DNA of 56,712 nucleotides. Source: an uncultured Candidatus Saccharibacteria bacterium (GTDB lineage Bacteria; Patescibacteriota; Minisyncoccia; Minisyncoccales; CAZKCU01). A program made the translations under genes and the position numbers. Location of the stretch: the NCBI GenBank assembly GCA_964431915.1, contig CAYSLI010000002.1:89503-146214 (forward strand), read 5' to 3'. Positions 16,732 to 53,907 of the stretch are shown piece by piece. The notes under the pieces are model-generated. The model was not told the DNA's origin. It made no database searches and saw nothing but the letters and a program-made list of their open reading frames with translations. Position 1 is the first letter of the stretch. The number at the start of each line of letters is the position of its first letter.

Positions 16732-16762
16732 ACCGAGCACATAAATAAATTATGTGCTCGGT
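16732..16762. repeat. 13-bp perfect hairpin, family CCGAGCAYATAA/TTATGTGCTCGG
   Basis: ACCGAGCACATAA-ATAAA-TTATGTGCTCGGT; related copies at 50693, 50834 and 50946. Confidence 0.85.
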
Positions 16763-16778
16763 GCTCGTTATTACTCGC

Positions 16779-17900
16779 ATGACAAATTTGGTCCTTTATC
16801 GCAAATACAGACCGCAAACTTTTGCTGAAATTATCGGTCAAGAACATATTGTTCAGACTTTAACCAACGCCATCTCAACAGGGATGATTTCCCATGCTTA
16901 TTTGTTTTCCGGCGGACGCGGTACAGGAAAAACTACAATTGCCAGGCTTTTAGCAAAAGCAGTTAACTGCGAAAATCGAAAAGATGACCAATATGAGCCC
17001 TGTAATAAATGCTCGTCATGCCTTGAAATTATGGAAGGAAGGTCAATGGATTTAATCGAAATTGATGCTGCTTCCCATCGGGGAATTGATGAAATGAGAG
17101 AATTAAAAGATGGAATTCGATTCGTACCTACAAAGTCAAAATATAAGGTATTTATAATTGATGAAAGTCATCAGCTTACGAAAGAAGCTGCCAATGCCCT
17201 CTTAAAAACTTTAGAAGAACCGCCAGCTCACGCCATTTTTGTTTTAGCCACCACCGAAATTCATAAAATGATTCCAACCATCATTTCTCGTTGCCAGAGA
17301 TTTGATTTCAGAAAACTAACCTTGCCGGAAATTATTAAAAGATTAGAAATTATTTCCCAGAAAGAAAAAGCTAAAATCGAAAAAGCAGCTTTGGAATTAA
17401 TTGCCTTGAATTCTGGAGGTTCAATCAGAGACGGAGAAAGTTTATTGGACCAGACTCTAACTTTCGCCGGAACTTCTGGGGAAGGGAAAGAAATAAAAGC
17501 GGAAGACATTAAGGATTTACTGGGATTGGTTGAGATAAACTTGGTGAGCAAGTTTTGCGATTTTATTGCCGAAAAAAAAGTTTCAGAAGCTATTACTTTT
17601 TTAAACGATACAATTGATAAAGGATTAGACCTTCAAAATTTTACCAAAGCTCTGATTAATTATTTAAGACAGACTTTAATTTTAAAAATGACCGGCGGAG
17701 GAGAAGGAAATTCAATAATTACCGGTTTGACCAAAGAGGAATTTCAAAAAATTGAAAAACAATCAGCTTTCTTTAAAGAAGATGAGCTTCGAAATATTTT
17801 AGGGCTTTTCCTCGAAGCTGAAAATAAAATGAAATATTCCTCAATACCCCAATTACCCTTGGAATTAGCAATAATTGAAGCAATCGGAGTAGGGGAGTAA
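16779..17900 (+). CDS. dnaX: DNA polymerase III subunit gamma/tau
   Basis: LYRKYRPQTF, SGGRGTGKT, EIDAASHRG, LLKTLEEPP and TIISRCQ. Start placed at ATG 16779, after the hairpin. Confidence 0.96.
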   Translation: MTNLVLYRKYRPQTFAEIIGQEHIVQTLTNAISTGMISHAYLFSGGRGTGKTTIARLLAKAVNCENRKDDQYEPCNKCSSCLEIMEGRSMDLIEIDAASHRGIDEMRELKDGIRFVPTKSKYKVFIIDESHQLTKEAANALLKTLEEPPAHAIFVLATTEIHKMIPTIISRCQRFDFRKLTLPEIIKRLEIISQKEKAKIEKAALELIALNSGGSIRDGESLLDQTLTFAGTSGEGKEIKAEDIKDLLGLVEINLVSKFCDFIAEKKVSEAITFLNDTIDKGLDLQNFTKALINYLRQTLILKMTGGGEGNSIITGLTKEEFQKIEKQSAFFKEDELRNILGLFLEAENKMKYSSIPQLPLELAIIEAIGVGE

Positions 17901-17904
17901 TTAT

Positions 17905-17919
17905 TCCGGGGTCGTTTAG
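17905..17919 (+). pseudogene. Possible 5' fragment of a tRNA-Gln
   Basis: TCCGGGGTCGTTTAG matches 11/15 nt of the 5' end of tRNA-Gln at 18657 (TGCGGGGTGGTGTAA). Confidence 0.4.
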
Positions 17920-17972
17920 CTTGTATTATTTGAACCACGGTGATATGATTAAAAAATATTAATTCGTGGTTC

Positions 17973-18653
17973 ATGATATTAAAACTCAAAGAAAAAGAAA
18001 GAGCAATAAAGCTTAGAAAAAGAGGATTTTCTTATTCTGAAATTTTAAAAGAGGTTCCGGTAGCTAAATCTACTTTATCTTTGTGGTTAAGAAGTGTTGG
18101 ATTGGCCAAAAAACAAAAACAAAGGCTTACAGAAAAAAGAGTCGCCGCTGCTCTTAGAGGAGCGATGGCTAAGAGAGATTATAGATTAGCTATTACTAAA
18201 GAGATTAAAGATAAAGCAAGAAATGAGATAAAAAGGCTATCTACTCGCGAATTGTGGCTTGTTGGTACTGCTCTTTATTGGGCAGAAGGATCGAAAGAAA
18301 GGACTAAGTCAAGTAATGTTCAATTTGGCAATTCAGATCCACAGATGATAAGATTATTTTTAGAATGGACCCAAAAGATATGTAAAGTTCCTAAACGAGA
18401 TATTTTTTGCGAAATTTACCTTCATGAGACTACTACTGAAAGAAAGAAGGAAGTCCAGAAATATTGGTCAAAAATGACCAATTTTCCTCTAACTCAATTT
18501 CAAAGAATTAGATGGAAGAAACACAAAATAAATACAAAAAGAAAAAATATTGGTAAAGATTATTACGGCTTATTAAGAGTTAATATAAGAAGAAGTAGTA
18601 ATTTTAACAGAAAAATAGCAGGATGGATTGAAGGAATTTGCCAAAAATATTAA
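17973..18653 (+). CDS. HTH plus LAGLIDADG-like putative endonuclease adjacent to tRNA
   Basis: N-terminal HTH (LRKRGFSYSEI...VAKSTLSLWLR), then LVGTALYWAEG (LAGLIDADG-type helix), F.NSDP.MIRLF and a basic beta-rich C-terminus. Confidence 0.55.
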   Translation: MILKLKEKERAIKLRKRGFSYSEILKEVPVAKSTLSLWLRSVGLAKKQKQRLTEKRVAAALRGAMAKRDYRLAITKEIKDKARNEIKRLSTRELWLVGTALYWAEGSKERTKSSNVQFGNSDPQMIRLFLEWTQKICKVPKRDIFCEIYLHETTTERKKEVQKYWSKMTNFPLTQFQRIRWKKHKINTKRKNIGKDYYGLLRVNIRRSSNFNRKIAGWIEGICQKY

Positions 18654-18656
18654 TAA

Positions 18657-18727
18657 TGCGGGGTGGTGTAATGGTAGCACCTGGGACCTTGGCTCCCAAG
18701 ATGAACGTTCGAATCGTTCCCCCGCAG
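18657..18727 (+). tRNA. tRNA-Gln(TTG)
   Basis: TGCGGGG/CCCCGCA acceptor with G discriminator; TGGGA-CC-TTG-GC-TCCCA anticodon arm; GAACG-TTCGAAT-CGTTC T arm; no encoded CCA. Confidence 0.88.
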
Positions 18728-18734
18728 CAAAATT

Positions 18735-19448
18735 ATGAAATTAACTAACAAAATTGCCTTAGTAACTGGTGGCTCAAAAGGAATTGGAAGAGCCATTGCT
18801 CAAAGGTTTATTAGAGAAGGAGCAAAGGTTATAGTTTTTGATATTGAGAAACCGAATTACGGAGTAGAATTTTATCAAGTTGATATAAGTAAAGAAGAAC
18901 AAATAGAAAAGGCGTTTGGTCAGATTAAACAATTAGATATCCTTGTAAATAATGCTGGAGTATATTTTCAGGTATCTGTAGAAGAAACCTCAAAGGAGCA
19001 GTTGGATAAAATTGTGGATATAAATTTAAAAGGAACATACCTAATGGCCAAACACGCAGTTCCCCTGATAAAGAAAACTAAAGGCAATATTATCAATATC
19101 TCGTCAGGAATAGGAGTTGCCCCTGAGCCAGAATCTCCTGCTTATTGCTCGACAAAAGCAGCAATAATAATGCTTACAAAGTGTATGGCTCAAGAATATG
19201 CATCAGAGGGAGTAAGAGTAAATGTGATATTGCCAGGACCAATAGATACCTCATTATTAAGAAATGTTTTTTCTTCAGAAAAGGAAATTGAAGAATACAA
19301 AAAGTTAAATCCAATGAAAAGAATTGGAAAACCTGAAGATGTTGCAAATATAGCAGTTTTTTTAGCTTCAGATGAAGCAAATTATATCACTGGTGGGCTA
19401 TATTCAGTTAATGGTGGAGAATCTACCTCCAGTATTTATTCAAAATAA
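18735..19448 (+). CDS. Short-chain dehydrogenase/reductase
   Basis: TGGSKGIG, LVNNAG, YCSTK (YxxxK) and VNVILPG. Confidence 0.93.
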   Translation: MKLTNKIALVTGGSKGIGRAIAQRFIREGAKVIVFDIEKPNYGVEFYQVDISKEEQIEKAFGQIKQLDILVNNAGVYFQVSVEETSKEQLDKIVDINLKGTYLMAKHAVPLIKKTKGNIINISSGIGVAPEPESPAYCSTKAAIIMLTKCMAQEYASEGVRVNVILPGPIDTSLLRNVFSSEKEIEEYKKLNPMKRIGKPEDVANIAVFLASDEANYITGGLYSVNGGESTSSIYSK

Positions 19449-19460
19449 GTCGCCGTAAGG

Positions 19461-19499
19461 AAAATCGCCAAGATGGCGATTTTTTGGTAGAATAGGAAT
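19461..19499 (+). promoter_or_regulatory. Terminator hairpin fused to extended -10 promoter of a leaderless gene
   Basis: AAAATCGCCA-AGA-TGGCGATTTT, then TGGTAGAAT (19485-93), 6 nt, ATG 19500. The same module occurs at 19944 (half), 24164, 25148 and 26621. Confidence 0.75.
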
Positions 19500-19958
19500 A
19501 TGAATAATAATTTTAACTCAGAAAATTTAGGTAAAATTTTCGATTTTTTACATAAAGTAGGAAAGTTAAAATTAACTTTCAGATTTAGTGAGGTAAAAAA
19601 CATGCCTGAAGATTTAAAAGACTCAAGTGCTGCGCATTCGTGGAGATTGGTCTTAATGGTATTTATAGTAGCTGATGAATTAAATTTGGATATAAATATA
19701 GAGCACGCCTTAGAGATTGCTATTATTCACGATATTGTAGAAGCAATTACAGGGGATATAGACCAAGTTTTAATTTTTGATGGTAAGGTATCAAAAGAAG
19801 AAAAACAAAGAAATGAAAAAGAAGCGATGGAAAAACTTAAAGAAAGCCTACCTTTAAAACTCGGAAATAAAGTATCTAATTTATGGAATGAATATGAAGG
19901 AAGCCCTACAAAAGAAGCGAAATTTGTAAAAGCACTTGATAAAGCGGTTTTTTGGTAG
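19500..19958 (+). pseudogene. HD-domain (YfbR/HDDC2-like) protein, apparently C-terminally truncated
   Basis: SSAAHSWR and IIHDIVEA..GD motifs. Ends at EAKFVKALDK|AVFW*, where the last four codons and stop come from the promoter module. Confidence 0.65.
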
Positions 19959-19967
19959 AATAAAGGA

Positions 19968-20507
19968 ATGAAAAATATAGAAATAAAAATTAGAAAATCT
20001 GTTCCTAGTGATGTATATGGGATTAGGGAGGTCCAAGAGGTAACTTGGATAAATACTTATCCAAATGATAAAGCGGGGATAACTTTAGAGGATATTAAAA
20101 GTAAATTTAAAGATGATGATACTTCAGAGGGAAGAAAAAAGATTGAAGAAAAAAAAGAAAGATACAAAGATAAGAGCAAGCGAACTTGGGTAGCAGAAGA
20201 AAAAGGGAAAATAATAGGTTTTTGTTCTGCAGGCAATGAAAAAGGGAAAGACAGAATTTTGGCGATATATGTTTTACCAGAATATCAAGGTAAAGGAATA
20301 GGAAATAGACTAATAACAAAGGTATTTAAATGGTTAAGCAATAATATGGCTATATATACAAATGTTGTTGAATACAATTTAAACGCAATAAACTTCTATA
20401 AAAGTCACGGATTTTCTGAAACAGAAAGAAAGGGAAAGTTAGATAGCGCAGCTACTTTACCTTCAGGAAAAACATTGCCTGAAATTGAACTTAAAAAATC
20501 AGTATAA
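19968..20507 (+). CDS. GNAT family N-acetyltransferase
   Basis: IYVLPEYQGKGIG acetyl-CoA motif; NAINFYKSHGF. Confidence 0.9.
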   Translation: MKNIEIKIRKSVPSDVYGIREVQEVTWINTYPNDKAGITLEDIKSKFKDDDTSEGRKKIEEKKERYKDKSKRTWVAEEKGKIIGFCSAGNEKGKDRILAIYVLPEYQGKGIGNRLITKVFKWLSNNMAIYTNVVEYNLNAINFYKSHGFSETERKGKLDSAATLPSGKTLPEIELKKSV

Positions 20508-50758: not shown

Positions 50759-50770
50759 AAATTTTATTTT

Positions 50771-50810
<40 letters not shown>

Positions 50811-51272
50811 GATAAGGCATGCAAGTCGTACGGTCGTGCACATAACTTGTTATGTGTACGATAGTGGCGAACGGGTTAGTAACACGTAGATACAAACCCT
50901 ATTCACGAGTATAACTAATCGAAAGATTAGCTAATCCTCGATGGTCCGAGCATATAATTTTATTATGTGCTCGGTAAAGGTTTCTCAAGAAGCCGGAATG
51001 GGATTGGTCTGCGGCCTATCAGCTTGTTGGTGGGGTAATAGCCCACCAAGGCAATGACGGGTAGGGGAGATGAGAGTCTGTTCCCCAACAAGGGCACTGC
51101 GACACGGGCCCTACTCCTACGGGAGGCAGCAGTCGAGAATATTGGGCAATGGGCGAAAGCCTGACCCTGCGACGCCGCGTGCTCGAAGAAGCCCTTCGGG
51201 GTGTAAAGAGCTTTTCTAAGGGAAGAACCTTCGGGTGACGGTACCTTAGGAATAAGGGGGTGCTAACTCTGT

Positions 51273-52118
51273 GGGTCCAAATACGGACTAGGCGCAGAGC
51301 TCTGGTGGCAACATCGGAGGAGAAAATCTCGCTATATGCTGGAAACTCTATTTATGTCCGCTGAATTTCCTGATATTATTAATATAATATTTCAGGACGC
51401 GTAAATAGACAATCAGCAGGAAACTTTTATTAATTGAATAAAAGGCTCCTCAGAGACTACACGCGAGACCCCGCCAATATCTACAAGTTGTGGCGGGTGA
51501 TGATATAGTCCAGTTAAATCGTATGAATGAAGAAACCAAAGCAATCCTTATAGGATTAATCTTAGGTGATGGTTACCTTACTCCATTTATTGGCGCAAGT
51601 AGTCGATCTCGAATGGAGATAAAAGGCGACAATAAAAGTCTATCTTACCTCAAATGGTTACATTCACGATTAGAACCAATGGGGGTTTCGGATTTGAAGC
51701 CTAAGAAGAATTATCATCAGCATCGTTTCTATACCAAAACTACTGAAGAGATAGGAAAATTAAGAAAGTTATTTTATCCCAGAGGACAAAAAACTGTTCC
51801 ACGAAATATTAAAAAACTTCTTAAAAACCCACTCAGTCTAGCGGTTTGGTATCAAGACGATGGCACCTTGGATTGCCGTAGTAAATACCATTACAATGCA
51901 TCATTTGCTACATATTGTTTTTCGTTCAGCGATTGCAAGTTACTTGCAGAAGCATTGAGAGAAAATTTTAATCTTGATGCAAGAGTATGTAAATGTCAGA
52001 TGCGCGGAAAAATACGCTATCGACTTTACATCACTTCCTCAAGCATGAGTCATTTCATAAGTTTAATTAAGTCTTATGTAAATCCATGCTTTGAGTACAA
52101 AATTCGCGAGTTTAACTA
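51273..52118 (+). mobile_element. Group I intron at 16S position 516
   Basis: 5' exon CTCTGT pairs with the IGS GCAGAG (U.G at the splice site); P (ATGCTGGAAA), Q (AATCAGCAGG), R (TCAGAGACTAC) and S (GATATAGTCC) elements; P3 CTCGC/GCGAG. Confidence 0.92.
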
Positions 52119-52119
52119 G
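51523..52119 (+). CDS. Double-motif LAGLIDADG homing endonuclease in P9 of the group I intron
   Basis: LIGLILGDG and LAVWYQDDG motifs; ATG 51523. Confidence 0.92.
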   Translation: MNEETKAILIGLILGDGYLTPFIGASSRSRMEIKGDNKSLSYLKWLHSRLEPMGVSDLKPKKNYHQHRFYTKTTEEIGKLRKLFYPRGQKTVPRNIKKLLKNPLSLAVWYQDDGTLDCRSKYHYNASFATYCFSFSDCKLLAEALRENFNLDARVCKCQMRGKIRYRLYITSSSMSHFISLIKSYVNPCFEYKIREFN

Positions 52120-52993
52120 CCAGCAGCAGCGGTAATACAGAGCCCCCAAGCGTTATCCGGATTTATTGGGCGTAAAGAGTCTGTAGGCGCCCCGTCAGGT
52201 TTTCTGTTAAATCTCTAGGGCTTAACCTTAGAGCTGCAGAAAAAACCGGTGGGGTAGAGGGCGTTAGAGGCTGATGGAACGGTCGGTGTAGGGGTGAAAT
52301 CCGTTGATATCGACCGGAACACCGAAAGCGAAGGCATTCAGCTGGGGCGACCCTGACGCTGAGAGACGAAAGCGTAGGTAGCGACAAGGATTAGATACCC
52401 TTTTAGTCTACGCTGTAAACGATGGACACTGGCTATCTGAAGTGTCGACCCTTCAGGTGGCGAAGCTAACGCGTTAAGTGTCCCGCCTGGGAAGTACGAC
52501 GGCAACGTTAAAACTCAAAGGAATAGACGGGGACTCACACAAGCGGTGGACCATGTGGCTCAATTCGACAACAAACGAGGAACCTTACCAGGGCTTGACA
52601 AGCTAGTGAAAAGTTGAGGAAACTTGACTCTACCCACAAGGACACTAGCCCAGGTGCTGCATGGTTGTCGTCAGCATGTATCTTGAGACGCTCCCTTAAA
52701 TGGGGTAACATGCGCAACCCTTGCCCTATGTTTAATTTGTCATAGGGGACTGCCTTGGATAACAAGGAGGAAGGTGAGGATGACGCCAAATCAGCATGGC
52801 CCTTTGATGCCCTGGGCTGCACACATGGTACAATGGGGCCGACAATGGGTTGCTAAGCGGTAACGCGGAGCTAATCCCATCAAACGGCCTCTCAGTTCGG
52901 ATTAAGGTCTGCAACTCGACCTTATGAAGCTGGAATCGCTAGTAATCGCCAATCAGCTATGTGGCGATGAATATGTTTCTGAGTCTTGTACTC

Positions 52994-53907
52994 GGGCGAC
53001 CGGCAGCTAATTAAATTAGTTGGTTAGAATCCAACTAGAGAAACCGAAGATTCTCTAAAGCGAAATTACAGGTCAAAACCGCGAGGTTTTGGCTGAAGGG
53101 TGAAAGTAGCATTCTTTAGCTTGAATATTCGTTAAGGCATAGTAAGGTGGTAATCCTGCGAGTACATGGAGAAACCAACTTCGGAGAAAACTTTACTGTG
53201 TGTAGAACATCGAGATAAAGAAGAAATGTTTAATTAGTGACCCGGTGATATCTTGTAATTGTTCCCGAGGTAAGCTACAATATAATTGAGGTTAGTTTAC
53301 CTCAGGATAAAAGATAAGAGTAATTTTATTTCTATGCAATTGCAAGAAGTCAGCAGAGCTCATAGTACCCATAAGGGGAAGGAGCGAATTCAATCGATAA
53401 AAAAACTCCATCCGCAATATTTAGCAGGATTTATAGACGGTGAAGGAAGTTTTTCGGTAAGCATTTACAAAGATGAGAAAATGAGAAATAAGATTTTTGT
53501 CCGCCCGGAGTTTGAAATTGAGTTAAGAGCAGACGATCGCGAAATTCTTCAAAGAATTCAAAAAACCTTAGGATGCGGTAAAATCTATGAATGTAATTAT
53601 GAGAGATATGGTTGGTATCCCCATGTAAAATACAAGGTGAGCAGATTAGATGAAATTTCTGAAATTTTAATCCCATTTTTCGAAAAATGGCCGCTTCAAG
53701 CAAAGAAAGCAAAAGTATTCAAGCACTTTAAACGAATAATTAGAAAGAGAATAAATGGAGAGCATCTTACAGAGAGGGGAGTTGAGGAAATTATTAAATT
53801 GCGCGATAAAATTAGAGTTTTAGGTAAAAAACATCGATTGGAAACCGCTAGGATACGGGAAAACCGTTCGTCCAGTGGTGTGGGGCGATGAACTCATCGA
53901 TCCCAAT
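52994..53907 (+). mobile_element. Group II intron at 16S position ~1397
   Basis: 5' GGGCG; EBS1 GAGTAC (53160-65) complements the exon end GTACTC; DIII AAGTCAGCAGAGCTCATAGTA...GAAGGAGCGAA; DV CCGCTAGGATACGG-GAAA-ACCGTTCGTCCAGTGG; DVI with bulged A 8 nt from the terminal AT. Confidence 0.88.
53335..53891 (+). CDS. Single-motif LAGLIDADG homing endonuclease inside the group II intron
   Basis: YLAGFIDGEGSF...FEI...D..IL..IQKTLGCG...PFFEK.PL..KK; start uncertain (first ATG 53335). Confidence 0.9.

Follow-up and report, generated by a model that had tools for sequence, protein, structure and literature searches.

A compact cassette that breaks a resident tRNA-Gln gene and supplies a replacement tRNA in Patescibacteria, with a putative homing endonuclease

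The tRNA-Gln locus downstream of dnaX

The analysis concerns a stretch of 56,712 nucleotides (nt), referred to as the window, on contig C2 of a Patescibacteria genome (G000; 539 kb, 96% complete) whose order-level relatives include Nealsonbacteria. Directly downstream of dnaX, the window contains a cassette of about 810 nt (positions 17920-18728) consisting of an AT-rich leader of 53 nt, an open reading frame (ORF) for a protein of 226 amino acids (aa) and a complete tRNA-Gln(UUG), preceded by a short tRNA-like sequence and followed by a dehydrogenase gene (Table 1). As set out below, it is strongly supported that this cassette is an element that has invaded a resident tRNA-Gln gene and has supplied the replacement. 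The parts are closely packed: the dnaX stop codon is followed by TTAT and then by the tRNA-like sequence TCCGGGGTCGTTTAG, the cassette tRNA starts 3 nt after the stop codon of the ORF and ends 6 nt before the start of the dehydrogenase gene, and neither the ORF list nor the sequence contained a further gene between TCCGGGGTCGTTTAG and the 3' end of the tRNA. A scan of positions 17000-20000 against Rfam matched no RNA family apart from tRNA-Gln, so that neither a group I intron nor any further known RNA was found at this locus. According to the whole-genome tRNA list, the cassette-borne gene is the sole UUG copy among the 46 tRNAs of the genome, and the CUG isoacceptor is located on another contig.

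A preliminary description of this DNA had interpreted TCCGGGGTCGTTTAG as the 5' fragment of a tRNA-Gln gene invaded in its D-arm. The positions of fragment and tRNA and the identity of 11 out of 15 nt between TCCGGGGTCGTTTAG and the beginning of the cassette tRNA (TGCGGGGTGGTGTAA) were confirmed; this match alone, with a local score of 25 at a shuffle maximum of 26, is not significant. The decisive comparison is with G001, a genome of the same genus with dnaX identities of 95% (protein) and 94% (DNA). There, a complete tRNA-Gln(UUG) (TCCGGGGTCGTCTAATGG..., TCCGGGGTCGTCTAATGGTAGGAC...; L113:2440-2515) begins 4 nt past the dnaX stop codon, at the same position as the fragment in the window, and is identical to the fragment at 13 of the first 15 nt. 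The DNA alignment between the two genomes (94%) runs unbroken across dnaX, ends at window position 17918 and restarts at the start codon of the dehydrogenase gene (window 18734-19943, corresponding to G001:608603-609812; 92%). The window lacks the resident tRNA from about position 12-15 through position 76 and has gained the cassette instead. As the syntenic gene in G001 is complete, matches at 13 of 15 positions and is left by the alignment at 17918, the stump is genuine, and a chance match as its origin was rejected. G001 thus provides the empty-site relative that had been sought.

The element had also been proposed to supply a new 5' end to the tRNA. A replacement is indeed supplied, but it is a whole tRNA and not only the 5' end, since the cassette tRNA differs from the resident tRNA of G001 throughout, including the acceptor stem with its 3' strand (UGCGGGG/CCCCGCA versus UCCGGGG/CCCCGGA), the anticodon stem and the stem of the T-arm. 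The cassette tRNA has its own co-adapted acceptor stem and replaces the entire resident gene. A single crossover with an element carrying only the 5' part of a tRNA was accordingly rejected for the window, because the 3' half and the acceptor strand of the new tRNA are not derived from the resident gene.

Table 1. Features of the cassette and its flanks in the window.
Feature	Position	Strand	Remarks
dnaX	16752..17900	+	left flank, outside the element; stop codon TAA 17898-17900
Stump of resident tRNA-Gln(UUG): 5' strand of the acceptor stem and beginning of the D-arm (tRNA positions 1 to about 11-15)	17905..17919	+	13/15 identical to the start of the G001 tRNA
Left end of the cassette: promoter-like boxes and inverted repeat	17920..17972	+	layout common to homologous loci
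ORF of 226 aa: N-terminal helix-turn-helix (about 1-45), long helix (54-86), C-terminal alpha/beta domain (about 88-226)	17973..18653	+	putative site-specific nuclease
Complete, cassette-borne tRNA-Gln(UUG)	18657..18728	+	ARAGORN; Rfam 58 bits
Short-chain dehydrogenase (SDR) gene	18735..19448	+	right flank, outside the element; G001 homology restarts at its start codon

Further downstream, between the dehydrogenase gene and an HD gene, the window contains a terminator hairpin, AAATCGCCAAGATGGCGATTTTTT (19461-19494), which occurs at more than 10 places in G001 and reaches about 100x summed contig depth in salt-marsh metagenomes. The hairpin and its high-depth spot represent an ordinary, widely shared terminator motif.

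Gln-type cassettes are linked to tRNA-Gln(UUG)

The ORF belongs to a large protein family with at least 2955 relatives in a database clustered at 90% and 4031 clusters at 50% identity (E <= 0.001), all unnamed and without Pfam domains. Among species-representative genomes, 492 matches were obtained, and the best 80 of them together with three others formed a set of 83 Gln-type loci. When these were scored for their association with tRNA genes, a tRNA-Gln(UUG) was located downstream on the same strand in all 82 loci with enough sequence, at a distance of 0-52 nt from the point where the protein match ends. The reading frame of 47 loci terminates within the tRNA, and the common C-terminus ...CGVV* is encoded by TGC GGG GTG/GTC GTG/GTC TAA (TGCGGGGTGGTGTAA), that is, by the first 15 nt of the tRNA. 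The surroundings vary: the upstream neighbour is dnaX in 43 of the 83 loci and ftsX or another gene in the remaining 40, and the downstream neighbours, compared for 63 loci, are almost all unrelated. The constant tRNA among varied neighbours indicates that the conserved unit is formed by leader, ORF and tRNA. A conserved downstream partner such as a recombinase was rejected, as a gene for a large serine recombinase occurred in only 4 of the 63 loci.

Stumps as in the window were found in four further Gln-type loci, extending over tRNA-Gln positions 1-33 (L025), 1-34 (L074), 1-21 (L044) and 1-19 (L046). They score 33-61 against shuffle maxima of 24-30, and each of them has tRNA position 1 as its first base and directly adjoins the -35 box. 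The stump is unlike the cassette's own tRNA in L074 and L044, as it is in the window; in L025 the two are identical at 32 of 33 positions. Most Gln-type loci have no detectable stump, which is to be expected because a stump is unselected DNA.

Several other features were noted at these loci. In five of them (L007, L009, L010, L013, L085), dnaX continues into ...ESCG.V*, with codons (TGCGGGGTTGCTTAG and similar) resembling a decayed tRNA-Gln 5' relic; such a relic seems to have been recruited as the C-terminus of dnaX. The large serine-recombinase gene (about 556 aa, opposite strand; motifs assigned by eye) shares about 35 nt with the 3' end of tRNA-Gln in L042, L054, L056 and L073, and islands with this recombinase use the tRNA-Gln 3' end independently of the ORF. 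In L010, L060 and L074, small GIY-YIG-like ORFs follow the tRNA, as judged by eye from their motifs. In G001, a 13.6-kb island (G001:C1:595015-608600; L113:2516-6001 and L114) separates the resident tRNA-Gln from the dehydrogenase gene. This island opens with a reading frame whose N-terminus (MDKLLTIKEIAKILRVSERSV...) by eye resembles a helix-turn-helix (HTH) of the excisionase type, and one of its ORFs is helicase-like and exceeds 1000 aa. The 3' side of tRNA-Gln is an integration hot spot.

Paralogues at other tRNA genes

Within the same order (40 genomes), a Gln-type orthologue was present only in G027 (70% identity). Another 17 genomes of the order encode one to four paralogues each, at 30-43% identity, one of which has an in-frame stop. 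A tRNA gene adjoins 19 of the 20 paralogue loci. In 16 loci the paralogue is located directly upstream of the tRNA and on the same strand, the tRNAs being Lys(CUU), Arg(UCG), Arg(GCG), Ile(UAU), Met, Gly(UCC), Gly(GCC), Val(GAC) and Thr(UGU); three loci lie directly downstream of tRNA-Glu(UUC), and the remaining one is without a tRNA. Several paralogues interrupt tRNA clusters that are contiguous in G000, namely Phe|Gly(GCC) (4 nt apart), Ile|Val (3 nt) and Pro|Gly(UCC) (80 nt).

The Lys type reproduces the arrangement of the window at a different tRNA. G001, which is free of the Gln cassette, has a Lys-type cassette, and the tRNA-Lys site of G000 is intact. Homology between the two genomes enters the resident tRNA-Lys for 27 nt and then ends; in G001 the ORF begins 13 nt after the stump (GCCCCGCTAGCTCAATTGGTAGAGCAG), and behind it lies a tRNA-Lys with only 77% identity to the G000 gene. 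As the Gln site is occupied in G000 and the Lys site in G001, the site occupied in each genome is empty in the other. The Lys-like layout is repeated in L100 with a stump covering tRNA positions 1-30. The Glu type is arranged as a mirror image: in L093 a complete tRNA-Glu is followed by the ORF and, 4 nt past its stop codon, by a 3' stump (positions 54-73). Thus, invasion of the D-arm of tRNA-Gln, as suggested in the preliminary description, is borne out by the empty site in G001, the recurrent stumps, the linkage in 82 of 82 loci and the paralogues at other tRNAs. The outcome named there as refuting, homologues that lack a tRNA association or an upstream fragment, did not occur. The family is large and undescribed, and the same replacement occurs at many tRNA genes of the ultra-small bacteria of the candidate phyla radiation (CPR)/Patescibacteria.

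Two observations concern the tRNA-Met genes. An fMet-like tRNA (CGCGG...CCCGCAACA), interrupted by a group I intron without an ORF (Rfam 82-88 bits), immediately precedes the Met-type paralogues (L091:2778-3031(-), L092:1673-1886, L094:1708-1907). In G000, outside the window, a genuine LAGLIDADG_3 ORF (G000:C2:36854-37081, within a frame of 332 aa) is situated in the 1-kb gap between tRNA-Met and tRNA-Asp, indicating a second, unrelated type of endonuclease among the tRNA genes of this genome.

A promoter-like leader with a palindrome

The leader of the window cassette contains a -35 box (TTGTAT, 17921-17926), a 17-nt spacer and a -10 box (TATGAT, 17944-17949), and an inverted repeat, GAACCACG (17932-17939) and CGTGGTTC (17965-17972), brackets the -10 box and finishes at the ATG. 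Nearly all Gln-type loci have this layout: the -35 box reads TTGACA, TTGTAT or TTTACA, the spacer of 17 nt includes GAAC.AC.G, the -10 box reads TATAAT or TATGAT, and the complementary arm ends 0-6 nt from the ATG; L001 displays a perfect TTGACA-17-TATAAT. The inverted repeat was detected in 47 of 81 loci compared with 12 of 81 shuffled controls, the -10 box is located within its loop in 42 of the 47, and the arm variants covary (GAACCACG, GAACTACG, GAACAACG, GAACCAAG, GAACTAAG). For the hairpin of the window, a folding z-score of -3.2 was obtained. As the 5' arm is positioned in the promoter spacer and would not be transcribed, the palindrome is best read as a DNA operator for an HTH dimer, and it may serve as an autoregulatory operator, with autorepression of the kind found for I-TevI. 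A promoter for the tRNA within the 3' end of the ORF was considered and rejected: the sole candidate has its last base at the start of the tRNA itself, and such matches are not enriched over shuffles. Given that the tRNA has no convincing promoter of its own and that many ORFs overlap it, co-transcription of ORF and tRNA is likely.

The 226-aa protein and its C-terminal domain

The N-terminal HTH noted in the preliminary description was confirmed. The window protein gave sub-threshold matches to HTH_23 and CENP-B_N, HTH_23 was matched in 36 of 39 family members, and the AlphaFold2 (AF2) model has a three-helix N-terminus; a profile comparison with the PAI subdomain of Sleeping Beauty was weak and non-significant (E 0.015). 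A long helix (residues 54-86) joins the HTH to a C-terminal domain of about 135 aa. The helix LVGTALYWAEG, with the acidic residue pointed out earlier, is present (LWLVGTALYWAEG, residues 94-106), and E105 is invariant in 61 sequences including paralogues, together with W103, G106, W165 and G199. Residues G98, L101, Y102, K108, N120, S121, D122, W132, F176, G217 and W218 are nearly invariant in the same set (G98 and Y102 at least 90%). The domain carries an invariant YWAEG.K ... NSD motif. In a confident model of the domain alone (predicted local distance difference test score 88, predicted template modelling (TM) score 0.81), the secondary structure elements follow one another as helix-strand-helix-strand-helix-strand-strand-helix. 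Together with the behaviour of the element, the conservation of acidic and basic residues suggests that the protein may function as a nuclease.

The same helix had led to the proposal that the protein is related to LAGLIDADG endonucleases. The core fold of this family is alpha-beta-beta-alpha-beta-beta-alpha, and I-CreI is a homodimer with a single motif per chain; its enzymes cut both DNA strands at specific sites and leave 3' overhangs of 4 nt. The cassette protein shares with LAGLIDADG proteins (PF00961, PF14528) a hydrophobic helix that ends in an invariant acidic residue plus glycine (LYWAEG); the strand and helix that follow (V.F.NSDP.MI..F..WL) resemble the LAGLIDADG core, and size and selfish life-style are similar as well. 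However, the predicted topology of the C-terminal domain differs from that of the family, and the similarity is confined to the motif. With alignments of LAGLIDADG_3 and LAGLIDADG_1 built from genomes of the same order or class, hhalign brought the cassette motif into register with the LAGLIDADG_3 core over 38 columns (P=0.0076, 5% probability); no motif alignment was obtained with LAGLIDADG_1, whereas the positive control, LAGLIDADG_1 versus LAGLIDADG_3, reached 92% (E 5e-7). Weak LAGLIDADG_3 matches occurred in 2 of 39 family members (best E 0.0014), the window protein itself gave no Pfam match, and no LAGLIDADG entry was among the top 50 Foldseek matches of the domain model in the PDB. Based on Pfam, on searches of the PDB with sequence and profile, on Foldseek comparisons of two AF2 models and on hhalign, membership in the LAGLIDADG family was rejected, and the likeness stays a lead for a domain that has no demonstrable family. 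As the fold is itself a prediction, a strongly derived LAGLIDADG fold may still be present.

The same genomes contain many bona fide LAGLIDADG genes, and these are clearly distinct from the cassette ORF. One of them (LAGLIDADG_1, about 53421-53738) is located in the window itself, ahead of tRNA-Ile and tRNA-Ala. It follows a group II intron D1-D4 fragment (53309-53384) after the 3' end of a 16S rRNA gene (50765-53035), which in turn holds a group I intron (51263-51531).

Mobility and distribution

Signs of recent copying came from one clear pair of loci, L018 and L020. Their dnaX genes are about 75% identical at the nucleotide level, but identity is 90-98% in a block that starts about 135 nt ahead of the ATG and stops exactly with the 3' end of the tRNA, and immediately past this end similarity is random. 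The step-change covers synonymous and non-synonymous sites alike, indicating that the unit was copied recently, that part of the left flank was co-converted with it and that the right border is the 3' end of the tRNA. The distribution of the family is patchy: it was present in 18 of 40 genomes sampled from the same order and in 65 of 301 from the same phylum. Carrier genomes have one to nine copies, some of which are split, fragmentary or interrupted by in-frame stops. The features of a free-standing homing element are thus found together, namely polymorphism at a precise site, a fixed target gene, co-conversion and a sporadic, multicopy and decaying distribution.

A homing model and its alternatives

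We consider it reasonably probable that the cassette is a compact selfish unit that was copied into the resident tRNA-Gln beside dnaX, and that the ORF product is its homing endonuclease. According to this model, the protein would be a site-specific DNA endonuclease, tethered by its HTH, that cuts a cassette-free tRNA-Gln gene inside the tRNA, with the cut placed between the D-arm and the anticodon loop, where the stumps end. The break would be repaired by copying from a cassette-bearing allele, amounting to free-standing, 'intron-less' homing in which the neighbouring tRNA is co-converted. Arrival of the cassette destroyed the resident gene from the D-arm onward and left the stump, and the cassette tRNA took over its function; since there is no splicing, a whole replacement tRNA would have to be carried. 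The stump with its left flank and the cassette tRNA, or DNA beyond it, could act as homology arms. Such arms would be present in any recipient, which would explain spread between lineages with different flanking genes. An HTH dimer probably binds the palindrome around its own -10 box and would thereby keep expression low. The host would depend on the cassette tRNA, which is probably co-transcribed with the ORF, so that the cassette would be hard to lose.

Several observations weigh against this model. The C-terminal domain matched no Pfam, NCBIfam or PDB family, and Foldseek comparison of its model with the PDB gave no significant match (best E 0.05, TM score at most 0.39), with OmpA-like and IspF folds at the top; in BFVD, a few homing-endonuclease or intein-bearing proteins appeared, only at E >0.5. 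The hhalign result for LAGLIDADG_3 is likewise a match at the level of the motif. Stump lengths vary (15, 19, 21, 33 and 34 nt), so that no cleavage site can be derived from them. It had been suggested that a different D-arm protects the supplied tRNA from being cut again; as a general mechanism of immunity this was rejected, because the D-arm of the stumps, UCGUCUAA, also occurs in 41 of 77 cassette tRNAs. The -35 box of the window is weak (3 of 6 positions), and a consensus promoter scan made no call there. A search of public runs for transcripts or population polymorphism yielded low-coverage salt-marsh DNA contigs only and no transcript. With the right junction 6 nt from the dehydrogenase start codon and the 13.6-kb island in G001, the ancestral right flank cannot be reconstructed. 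Finally, among dnaX-linked loci the divergence of the ORF correlates with that of dnaX (r=0.58; mean identity 56% for both). Much of the family's history is thus vertical descent and loss, punctuated by copying that took place mostly among relatives, and horizontal events may be rare.

An alternative is that the ORF encodes a novel small recombinase or transposase-like integrase, which inserts a circular or excised ORF-tRNA unit site-specifically into tRNA genes and needs no repair of double-strand breaks by the host. Insertion always within or beside a specific tRNA is classic for integrative elements, the HTH is of the resolvase/transposase type (matches to HTH_7, HTH_23, HTH_Tnp_1 and HTH_SB), and the varied contexts of the 40 of 83 loci away from dnaX suggest insertion independent of homology. 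The block shared by L018 and L020 is informative on both counts: its right boundary at the tRNA 3' end is sharp, as an integrase would leave it, but on the left it reaches about 135 nt upstream into dnaX, as in co-conversion and not as in precise integration. Pfam-type searches found no serine, tyrosine, DDE or HUH catalytic domain in the ORF. There are also no terminal inverted repeats and no target-site duplication around the unit, as both arms of the palindrome are at the left end, and a single crossover within the 5' part predicts a resident-derived 3' half of the tRNA, which is not seen in the window. We therefore regard a recombinase as unlikely.

The protein could also be an HTH transcription factor for its own promoter and the co-transcribed tRNA, linked to the tRNA through a shared operon, and a mere passenger in ordinary recombination at tRNA hot spots, which would produce the pattern of presence and absence. 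In favour of this, no domain other than the HTH could be assigned with confidence, the promoter is overlapped by a palindromic operator that is conserved, the tRNA overlaps the ORF and has no promoter of its own, and ORF divergence partly tracks that of dnaX. Such a role explains neither the pairing of paralogue lineages with particular tRNAs nor the destruction of the resident tRNA and the arrival of a new one, and it leaves the strong conservation of a C-terminal domain of 130 aa, with an invariant E and nearly invariant D, K and N, without a reason. In addition, 78% of the genomes of the phylum are without any member, and copies decay to pseudogenes. This explanation appears quite improbable.

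In an addiction module at the RNA level, the protein would cleave or inactivate the resident tRNA-Gln molecule and the linked tRNA would be a resistant antidote, so that selection would favour cells that keep the cassette and lose the old gene. This would fit the way in which each protein lineage is strictly paired with a single tRNA species, as well as the differences in the stems between cassette and resident tRNA in the window. It is nevertheless highly improbable: truncation of the resident gene itself where the cassette is inserted points to a DNA event, HTH and palindromic operator indicate that the protein binds DNA, the appearance of many cassette tRNAs is that of ordinary tRNAs of the resident type, and no similarity to known tRNases was found with Pfam or Foldseek.

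Going beyond the homing model for the window, the family may be a previously unrecognised group of nucleases with a fold of its own and a new style of homing into stable-RNA genes. In place of a self-splicing intron as shelter, the element would duplicate the 'exon', so that it is flanked by a stump at one end and by a full tRNA at the other; the tRNA itself would furnish homology arms that are universal, and the host would come to rely on the tRNA and the promoter of the cassette. Separate lineages would be specialised on individual tRNAs, and the Met type may mobilise group I introns in trans. We put this broader proposal forward only tentatively.

Relation to known systems and implications

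Phages, integrative and conjugative elements and genomic islands that target tRNA genes rely on integrases of the tyrosine or serine type; their target is usually the 3' part of the gene, and only the att core is duplicated. The cassette shares with them the tRNA target, the tRNA sequence brought along and a displaced partial tRNA at the junction; it differs in its size of about 0.8 kb, in being devoid of an integrase, in displacing the 5' part (the 3' part in the Glu type) and in supplying a whole tRNA. In collaborative homing, a free-standing endonuclease is encoded beside an ORF-less group I intron, as for F-CphI and psbA of cyanophage S-PM2. The layout of the Met type, with the paralogue after an intron-split tRNA, is similar, whereas the tRNA-Gln of the window is without an intron.

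The closest functional counterpart is SegB of phage T4, a free-standing GIY-YIG endonuclease that is encoded among the tRNA genes of T4 and promotes the inheritance of this region (PMC2330249). SegB and the cassette are alike in being stand-alone genes at tRNAs that are present or absent between relatives, in the co-inheritance of the flanking tRNA and in the absence of an intron or intein. In contrast to SegB, the cassette protein is unrelated to GIY-YIG enzymes and would act, if cleavage does occur, in cellular CPR genomes and not in phages; the cassette furthermore breaks its target tRNA, leaves a stump and carries a complete substitute, and each lineage is tied to one tRNA species. Intron-less homing by free-standing endonucleases has been reviewed together with I-TevI, which is its own transcriptional autorepressor (PMC2988022); the palindrome over the promoter of the cassette, as a predicted operator, fits autorepression of this kind. 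For CPR bacteria, rRNA introns with homing endonucleases have been described (PMC10714607, citing PMC9297842). A literature search gave no description of the family of the cassette ORF. Selfish elements of the homing type are already known; what sets the cassette family apart is a catalytic domain without assignment, cellular CPR hosts, a target tRNA that is both disrupted and substituted, and a radiation of tRNA-specific lineages.

If the family proves to be nucleolytic, it would represent a large reservoir of compact and diversified enzymes, with thousands of sequences and more than 4000 clusters at 50% identity, in which each lineage recognises a different and highly conserved tRNA gene sequence. 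The presence of empty and occupied alleles within one genus, and at two different tRNAs, provides a system in which this can be tested. The finding also offers an explanation for several oddities of CPR genomes, such as truncated tRNA-like fragments, ORFs that enter tRNA genes, divergent tRNAs in sister species and hypothetical proteins in otherwise minimal genomes. Introns and inteins enter essential genes harmlessly by splicing. The cassette would be a third solution to insertion into an essential gene, in that a spare copy of the gene is brought along. Under the broader proposal made above, the family would be a main cause of tRNA-gene turnover and of the remodelling of tRNA clusters across the Patescibacteria.

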